A stretch of 24,168 bases of DNA, from contig JBHLQH010000040.1 of NCBI GenBank assembly GCA_048884965.1, forward strand, positions 1 through 24,168, read 5' to 3'. The stretch comes from Candidatus Thorarchaeota archaeon (GTDB lineage Archaea; Asgardarchaeota; Thorarchaeia; Thorarchaeales; Thorarchaeaceae). Under the pieces are notes generated by a model. The model did no database searches and was not told the origin of the DNA. It saw only the letters and a list, made by a program, of their open reading frames with translations. A program made the translations under genes and the position numbers. Below are positions 21 through 122 of the stretch, in pieces (within the stretch, counting starts at the first letter, position 1; every line of letters starts with the position of its first letter).

Positions 21-122
21 TTACCTCACAACAGTTGCGTAAGCGTAGCCTACAGCCTTGGTCGAAGCGACCTGTTTCTTCATCTTCACGAATTCAGTTC
101 GGGTATTAGTTGCTAGAGCCAT
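21..122 (-). CDS. 33-aa basic small peptide MALATNTRTEFVKMKKQVASTKAVGYAYATVVR (not in the ORF track)
   Basis: Manual translation ATG(122) to TAA(21); TATATATA 32 nt upstream suggests a near-leaderless transcript; followed by SD plus a second MALA-starting ORF. Confidence 0.55.
   Translation of the reverse strand: MALATNTRTEFVKMKKQVASTKAVGYAYATVVR

Follow-up and report, generated by a model that had tools for sequence, protein, structure and literature searches.

Structure of the locus

The window, by which we mean the whole stretch of 24,168 nucleotides that was analysed, coincides with contig C40, one of 99 contigs in a Candidatus Thorarchaeota assembly of 4.09 Mb. The minus strand at its left end encodes a small basic protein, ORF A, and the first five codons of a second frame, ORF B (Table 1). 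The ATG of ORF A is at positions 122-120, with a gap of 32 nt between it and the TATA box, and five nt separate the stop codon of A from the ATG of B, a layout that is the same in relatives. Both frames begin with M-A-L-A, written in different codons. A preliminary description, made from the letters of this stretch, had reported ORF A at 21-122 of the minus strand as a 33-aa frame 32 nt past the TATA box, and every one of these details was right; the ribosome-binding motif that it placed in the last codons of A is likewise present, and the second frame that it saw running from position 15 to the edge, with its differently coded MALA start, is completed on contig C29.

Extension of the contig, which had been proposed as a check, joined the left end of the window to contig C29. 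The first 77 bases of C40 are the last 77 bases of C29, the 60- to 77-mers of this overlap occur on no other contig, and an overlap of this kind is the usual trace of a k-mer assembler. Read through into C29, ORF B encodes 26 aa and is a paralogue of A; in a full-length alignment the two share the start, a basic middle, an ST.A[IV]..AY...R block, and a terminal Arg. The profile of the family matches A with an E-value of 6e-16 and B with 2e-11. A 9-bp hairpin and a T-rich run lie 3' of B, with the stop codon of B inside the hairpin, and the 81-nt stretch around this hairpin folds with z = -3.85. The gene of a 250-aa membrane protein with a weak match to ECF-transporter S-components starts about 75 nt past the hairpin. 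Because the hairpin and T-run follow B directly, the unit is a two-gene operon (promoter, A, B, terminator) and no long array, and positions 1-211 of the minus strand are best explained as the promoter and the first one and a half genes of a two-gene microprotein operon. The tandem array first envisaged at this site therefore stands as a pair of related small peptides with more copies elsewhere in the genome, and falls as a long array: the unit is A and B followed by the hairpin and T-run, or A-B-C at other sites.

Table 1 Features of the window and of related loci (coordinates without a locus name refer to the window)
Feature	Location	Strand	Remarks
ORF A	21-122 with stop (24-122 without)	minus	33-aa basic microprotein, ATG start, TAA stop
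ORF B, first five codons	1-15, ATG at 15-13	minus	rest on contig C29
ORF B, complete	L001:9861-9938	minus	
Shine-Dalgarno-like GTGAGGT for ORF B	23-29	minus	overlaps last codons and stop of A
Start-site region, CTTGTGAAA then ATC	123-135	minus	directly before ATG; conserved in 16 loci
TATA box TATATATA	155-162	minus	
Box array upstream of TATA box	167-208	minus	presumed transcription-factor sites
Box TGTGGCT	167-173	minus	part of array
Box TGTGACC	180-186	minus	part of array
Palindrome GTCACA-N3-TGTGAC	194-208	minus	part of array
Second promoter copy	24087-24168	plus	right contig end, pointing outwards
Inverted repeat	129-209 and 24088-24168		81 nt, 96% matched
ORF C, own-genome loci	L002:1581-1700, L006:7011-7127, L028:3276-3392		
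Regulator	L006:5911-6642	minus	244-aa winged-helix protein, divergent from C9 cassette
RimJ-like GNAT (Acetyltransf_3) gene	L002:1730-2302	minus	adjoins cassette; second such locus L026
All-TPR protein, 316 aa	L028:1803-2750	minus	divergent from C53 cassette
B+C call P0043	L032:1142-1354		listed as one 70-aa protein

Promoter and contig ends

The TGTG starts in the box array upstream of the TATA box are spaced 13 bp apart. Across 16 loci from approximately 14 genera, the promoters align without gaps from the palindrome GTnACA-N4-TGTGAC to the start site, and include GTGACCC and GTGGCTT boxes 13 bp apart, then the TATA box, and CTTGTGAAA about 10 nt before the ATG. The window promoter (124-211; nhmmer E = 1e-21) aligns with the 15 other loci. 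Applying the distance that is usual in archaea between TATA box and start site, we infer a 5' UTR of about 10 nt and thus a nearly leaderless mRNA. A search of the own genome with nhmmer recovered five full copies of the promoter, and partial copies that precede an MFS paralogue, a Bactofilin-domain gene, and one more gene. In the partial TGTGAC-box promoters ahead of the 420-aa Bactofilin-domain protein and the MFS_1 paralogue, no peptide cassette lies between promoter and gene (L029:3126-4385, L030 = C8:55970-56027).

The repeated promoter mentioned in the preliminary description is real and takes the form of an 81-nt inverted repeat (Table 1). At the right end the contig stops about 10 nt short of the expected ATG of another cassette, which probably starts there; the repetition suspected past this end is accordingly represented by an outward promoter copy and a probable further cassette, and not by a long array. 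The 24-kb contig is bracketed by inverted promoter copies that both face outwards, and such copies could allow inversion of the 24-kb segment. That C40 begins and ends in repeats explains the assembly break, and cassette repeats do break assemblies in practice.

Distribution of the gene family

Searches of the own genome by tblastn and a small-ORF HMM located cassette copies on contigs C81, C1, C9, C32, and C53 and at the C5/C11 junction, so that with the window copy and the right-end promoter copy added to these six other sites the genome has at least eight. The number per genome is 5 to 10. Within the taxonomic family of this genome, the A/B profile matches 22 of 24 genomes, representing 16 genera (E-values down to 1e-16), and 40 of 43 genomes in a second, larger sample (E <= 1e-4). 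The matches are nearly always tandem pairs with intact frames. None of 157 genomes from 26 other Asgard families has a match at E <= 1e-4. The search for homologues and further MALA frames across Asgard genomes that had been suggested at the outset thus yielded many, all within one family of Thorarchaeota, and among the genomes searched A and B constitute a multi-copy gene family restricted to that family. We define its members by a length of 26-38 aa, an M-A-[LF]-A start, and a C-terminal ST.A[IVL]..[AS]Y block followed by 2-5 residues and ending in Arg. The window copy has the length and motif in both A and B, the tandem A-B order with the Shine-Dalgarno motif inside A, and the TGTGAC-box promoter.

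Databases hold little on these proteins. Sixty small proteins, almost all 29-40 aa long, match the profile in a library of 1.84 billion proteins, and the ten that we looked up are unnamed or listed as 'hypothetical protein'. Five peptides of the own genome were looked up in a collection of 15 billion proteins and none is present. A, B, and C have no meaningful match in Pfam, NCBIfam, the ESM Atlas (searched by features), Rfam (E up to 1), or the PDB sequences (searched by profile); the lone database line for A is a sub-threshold hit to CreS_N (E 0.065, 14 bits against a cut-off of 27). No description of the A/B family was found in the literature on small proteins and microproteins of Thorarchaeota and other Asgard archaea.

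Coding evidence

Several lines of evidence establish that ORFs A and B are conserved coding genes. Between the B copies on C29 and C11 there are 10 differences in 78 bases, every one of them synonymous. Among copies of A, pN/pS is below 1 in 14 of 15 pairwise comparisons (0.08-0.71), the exception being a near-identical pair with 5 differences (pN/pS 1.38), and third-position changes dominate most comparisons. Most values lie between 0.3 and 0.7, indicating moderate constraint outside the conserved block. The motif has been kept across approximately 14 genera in different codons. Further, the terminal Arg-Arg of B is written AGG AGG where ORF C follows and a Shine-Dalgarno sequence is needed, and AGA CGC in the window copy; since the pair is kept where no such sequence is needed, it is the residues themselves that are selected. 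The protein-level conservation that the two MALA starts had hinted at is thus borne out: A and B are related and under protein-level selection, with intact frames.

These observations bear on the proposal that the cassettes are starter cistrons, which would mainly serve as a dispersed module with a strong, regulated promoter and with a leaderless start to load ribosomes for downstream genes coupled through Shine-Dalgarno sequences, the peptides themselves having little function. In the own genome, the five full copies hardly differ in promoter and 5' end, which suggests gene conversion or a recent spread; several unrelated operons begin with the cassette; and the middle of A is only moderately constrained, all of which would fit. 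However, the uniformly synonymous differences in B, the recoded motif across genera, the Arg-Arg end, and the many stand-alone copies with their own terminators all count against this proposal, and we regard it as distinctly improbable.

A supposed fusion of B to C into a protein of approximately 70 aa, considered as Rosetta-stone evidence, was rejected. Six public ENA entries (P0026, P0043, P0051, P0052, P0062, and P0063) give B and C as a single protein of 70 aa, and P0043 does so only if the TAG stop of B is read as Gln, which marks it as a gene-calling artefact; the artefact was established at the P0043 contig, and the five sibling entries share its Arg-Gln-Ile junction.

ORF C and the ends of the cassettes

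A third frame, ORF C (34-42 aa), follows B in the cassettes on C81, C9, and C53 and in 11 of the 19 relatives' loci that were fetched. The window copy is without it and ends after B with the hairpin, and since ORF C is present in some copies and not in all, it is optional. The N-terminal part of C is variable, while its last twelve residues are nearly invariant and end in VLALEAT. The stop codon of C forms part of an 11-bp hairpin with a T-run behind it, and compensatory changes are seen at two of the base pairs. Conservation of the RNA hairpin alone as the cause of the invariant end is ruled out by the cassettes linked to a winged-helix (wHTH) regulator gene, which have the same LEAT ending in other codons and with a different hairpin; the ending of the peptide is therefore conserved in its own right.

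What follows the last frame varies. Downstream of the cassettes on C81 and C9, and also in several relatives, lies a convergent gene, as it does for roughly 40% of the cassettes seen, and the cassettes are therefore not obligatory leaders of a downstream gene. About one quarter have no terminator and run directly into an MFS gene, the start of which, directly after B, takes the place of ORF C (C1, L009, L013, L019). On C11, the stretch between B and the MFS gene (L004:250-500) holds two further small, unrelated ORFs and repeated GGTCAC boxes at intervals of about 10-11 bp; the boxes may be a second operator array.

This layout raises the possibility of a leader that acts in cis, in which ribosomes that translate A, B, and C, and that may pause at the conserved residues of the C-terminus, would keep the terminator hairpin from forming or, in a variant, would block a termination factor, and so tune read-through or translational coupling into a transporter gene. 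Such a leader would account for the conserved residues directly before the stop codons and the variable N-terminal parts of ORF C, for the position of the last stop codon inside the hairpin in both the window copy and the C-type cassettes, for the MFS genes directly after B, and for the ECF-S-like gene 75 nt past the hairpin of the window copy. However, the frequency of convergent neighbours is difficult to reconcile with it, and the most widely conserved type of cassette, which stands beside the wHTH gene, has no co-oriented downstream gene. Two or three paralogous frames with a conserved N-terminus are unlike an arrest peptide, the cassettes showed no alternative anti-terminator fold, and T-runs are the main basis of termination in archaea. 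We therefore consider the cis-acting leader, in either form, rather unlikely.

Properties and predicted structure of the peptides

The peptides are strongly basic (pI 10.3 for A and 11.2 for B) and hydrophilic (GRAVY -0.01 for A and -0.39 for B), and sequence analysis found no transmembrane segment, signal peptide, or hydrophobic stretch in either. Neither contains Cys. Conservation is concentrated at the two ends, the extreme N-terminus and the C-terminal helix, and the middle is variable. An AF2 model of A, built on an alignment of 52 sequences, predicts a helix at residues 21-32 only (pLDDT of the block 83), with low confidence for the rest. The idea that these were toxins, put forward in the preliminary description, fits poorly with the GRAVY values, the want of a hydrophobic segment, and the single predicted helix of 12 residues. 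Complex prediction for A, C, and B with B as the partner returned a score of 0.02 and a partner pLDDT under 50, and weighs neither way on binding. We also considered a microProtein of the kind that acts as a decoy of a bigger protein, which has no sequence support because no larger protein of the own genome carries the A/B or C motif at an E-value below 1.

Neighbouring genes and the PadR-like regulator

Genes next to the cassettes encode transporters (MFS_1, MFS_3, EamA, and an ECF-S-like protein), flavodoxin, a RimJ-like GNAT, a methyltransferase, a TPR protein, a nitroreductase, and a PadR protein; SDR and HDAC proteins were among the further neighbours scanned. Homologues of one neighbouring gene bear the NCBI name Candidatus Thorarchaeota and so identify the lineage. 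The approximately 25 neighbouring proteins scanned include no maturase, peptidase, or ABC exporter, and no radical-SAM, YcaO, or lanthipeptide synthetase protein. Of the genes that were to be looked for nearby, transporters are present in this set. Genomically, the cassettes are associated with a PadR-like regulator and, in many cases, with transporters of the efflux type.

Two neighbours deserve a separate remark. The RimJ-like GNAT gene adjoins a cassette at two loci, and since A and B would start with Ala after removal of Met, a usual substrate of acetylation, a link between the two might be imagined, although this is pure speculation. The all-TPR protein is divergent from the cassette at C53, at this one locus; TPR domains often bind C-terminal peptides.

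The regulator gene is a conserved neighbour. Of the 22 family genomes with an orthologue of it, 15 have this gene divergent from a cassette and about 200-600 bp away, as determined by coordinate comparison. In G010, which has a single detected cassette in both searches, and in G017, which has one cassette in the first search and two weak matches in the second, the cassette stands beside the regulator gene. The AF2 model of the regulator (pLDDT 87.5) is closest to PH1932, an ArsR homologue of Pyrococcus (1ULY, 2CWE; E approximately 1e-8), then to VanR and PadR, and is predicted to combine a wHTH domain with a helical dimerisation domain and to be without a TPR peptide pocket. The own genome has four further paralogues. 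Cassettes linked to the wHTH gene, which are the most widely conserved type, use a different promoter, in which a GGTTTG-N5-CAAACC palindrome abuts the TATA box. This is the classic position for a repressor.

The gene neighbourhoods are also informative about two ways in which the peptides might be processed or exported. RiPP precursors, one of the readings offered in the preliminary description, would here depend on maturation enzymes whose genes lie away from the cassettes. The family consists of small paralogues scattered over the genome, in which a Tyr is invariant and a Ser-Thr pair conserved, as might be the case for such precursors, and the prochlorosins, for which dispersed precursors are known, provide a precedent. 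However, the peptides have no Cys, their conserved C-terminus and variable middle show no division into leader and core, and no maturation, peptidase, or ABC gene is among the neighbours scanned, and we regard this reading as highly improbable.

Alternatively, the peptides could be an exported leaderless set of signals or antimicrobials, pumped out by MFS_3, EamA, and MFS_1 proteins and sensed through the wHTH regulator. They are cationic, short, and made in sets of two or three, the cassettes recur beside MFS_1, MFS_3, and EamA genes, and one cassette per genome is divergent from the regulator gene, as in shp/rgg. Set against these points, the peptides are very hydrophilic, with no Trp, and an amphipathic, membrane-active face in them would span 12 residues at most; neither a double-glycine nor any other processing site was seen in them, nor an ABC exporter, peptidase, or immunity gene near the cassettes. 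The regulator resembles PadR and PH1932 and has no TPR pocket for a peptide, and the family is near-universal in its archaeal family, whereas bacteriocin loci are patchy. Export of this kind is improbable in our view.

A proposed role as trans-acting microproteins

We favour the explanation that A, B, and C are trans-acting microproteins whose C-terminal helix binds a shared partner within the regulon, and we give it about an even chance of being correct. It is preferred on account of the stand-alone copies, the protein-level selection, the presence of the same motif in A and B, and the pairing with a regulator over that with a downstream gene. The conserved residues that abut the stop codons, the last stop inside the hairpin, and the cases of read-on into MFS genes count against it, as they would fit a cis-acting leader too, and so does the moderate constraint on A outside its conserved block.

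In the proposed mechanism, the TGTGAC-box promoter would drive a nearly leaderless mRNA, with A translated from its 5' end and B by coupling through the Shine-Dalgarno motif inside the end of A, and the unit would end at the hairpin and T-run that include the stop codon of B. The products would be largely disordered basic microproteins acting in trans, and activation of the regulon by the box-binding factor would induce them along with the MFS, EamA, or ECF-S-like membrane proteins. Through the conserved amphipathic helix of 12 residues at the C-terminus (ST.A[IVL]..AY...R), they would dock on a partner in the cell that they share, most probably one of the regulators or transporters that belong to this regulon.

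In a more tentative extension, with the odds somewhat against it, A, B, and C would be parts of a new Thorarchaeota-specific circuit, in which disordered microproteins under a PadR-like repressor and a TGTGAC-box factor switch transporters or regulators through their C-terminal helices. The microproteins would serve, for example, as anti-repressors or as gate-keepers of MFS and EamA pumps, and the circuit would have been copied before several efflux operons. The family is likely to be a significant part of the physiology of its lineage, given that it is near-universal there, present in 5-10 copies per genome, and accompanied by a conserved promoter and a paired regulator, and it may relate to the control of stress or efflux.

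Asgard archaea are uncultured relatives of the ancestor of eukaryotes, and annotation of their genomes depends almost wholly on homology, so that genes of 26-40 codons escape it. The cassettes further provide a defined set of promoters and operators for studies of transcription regulation in Asgard archaea.

Comparison with known systems

Small archaeal proteins have been described in Methanosarcina mazei, in which the small proteome has been charted by Ribo-seq (PMC11456600), the 23-aa sP26 binds glutamine synthetase (bioRxiv 10.1101/2020.05.06.080432), and MtrR is a regulatory microprotein (PMC13370731). The Thorarchaeota genes resemble these in being unannotated archaeal frames of 20-40 codons with soluble products thought to bind a larger protein. 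However, the M. mazei microproteins are single genes with a demonstrated partner, whereas those of Thorarchaeota are paralogous pairs or triplets under one promoter in 5-10 copies, and the two groups have no sequence similarity.

Leader and arrest peptides such as TnaC, ErmCL, SpeFL, and MgtL precede transporter or resistance genes. They share with the cassettes the short frames before transporter genes, conservation next to the stop codon, and the overlap of the stop with a terminator hairpin. The Thorarchaeota cassettes differ in that they often stand alone or face convergent neighbours, consist of coupled paralogous frames with a conserved N-terminus, and have no alternative RNA fold that we could find.

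Among leaderless multi-peptide bacteriocins, aureocin A70 and enterocin L50 are also encoded by tandem genes for several cationic peptides of about 30 aa. In contrast to these, A and B have no hydrophobic core and no Trp, are not accompanied by immunity or ABC genes, and are near-universal in one archaeal family instead of patchily distributed. In the Rgg/SHP systems of the RRNPP group, small peptide genes are divergent from an HTH regulator, with exporters nearby, and the same arrangement is present in Thorarchaeota. The regulator there, however, is without a TPR domain, the peptides are hydrophilic and without signals for export or processing, and the host is an archaeon.

Proteins with a fold like the one predicted for the regulator are PadR of the Bacillus subtilis padC system, LmrR of lmrCD, and VanR, with the PDB entries 5X11, 7Q34, and 5Z7B, and the archaeal PH1932 (1ULY/2CWE). 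As in the PadR systems, the gene of the Thorarchaeota regulator and its presumed target operon point away from each other, and the TATA box has a palindrome directly beside it. The target in those systems is an enzyme or a pump, whereas here it is presumed to be three microproteins; the window copy, unlike the PadR-linked cassettes with their palindrome promoter, uses the TGTGAC-box promoter. Small regulatory proteins and divergent modules of the PadR type are thus of known kinds, and their combination in Thorarchaeota is new.
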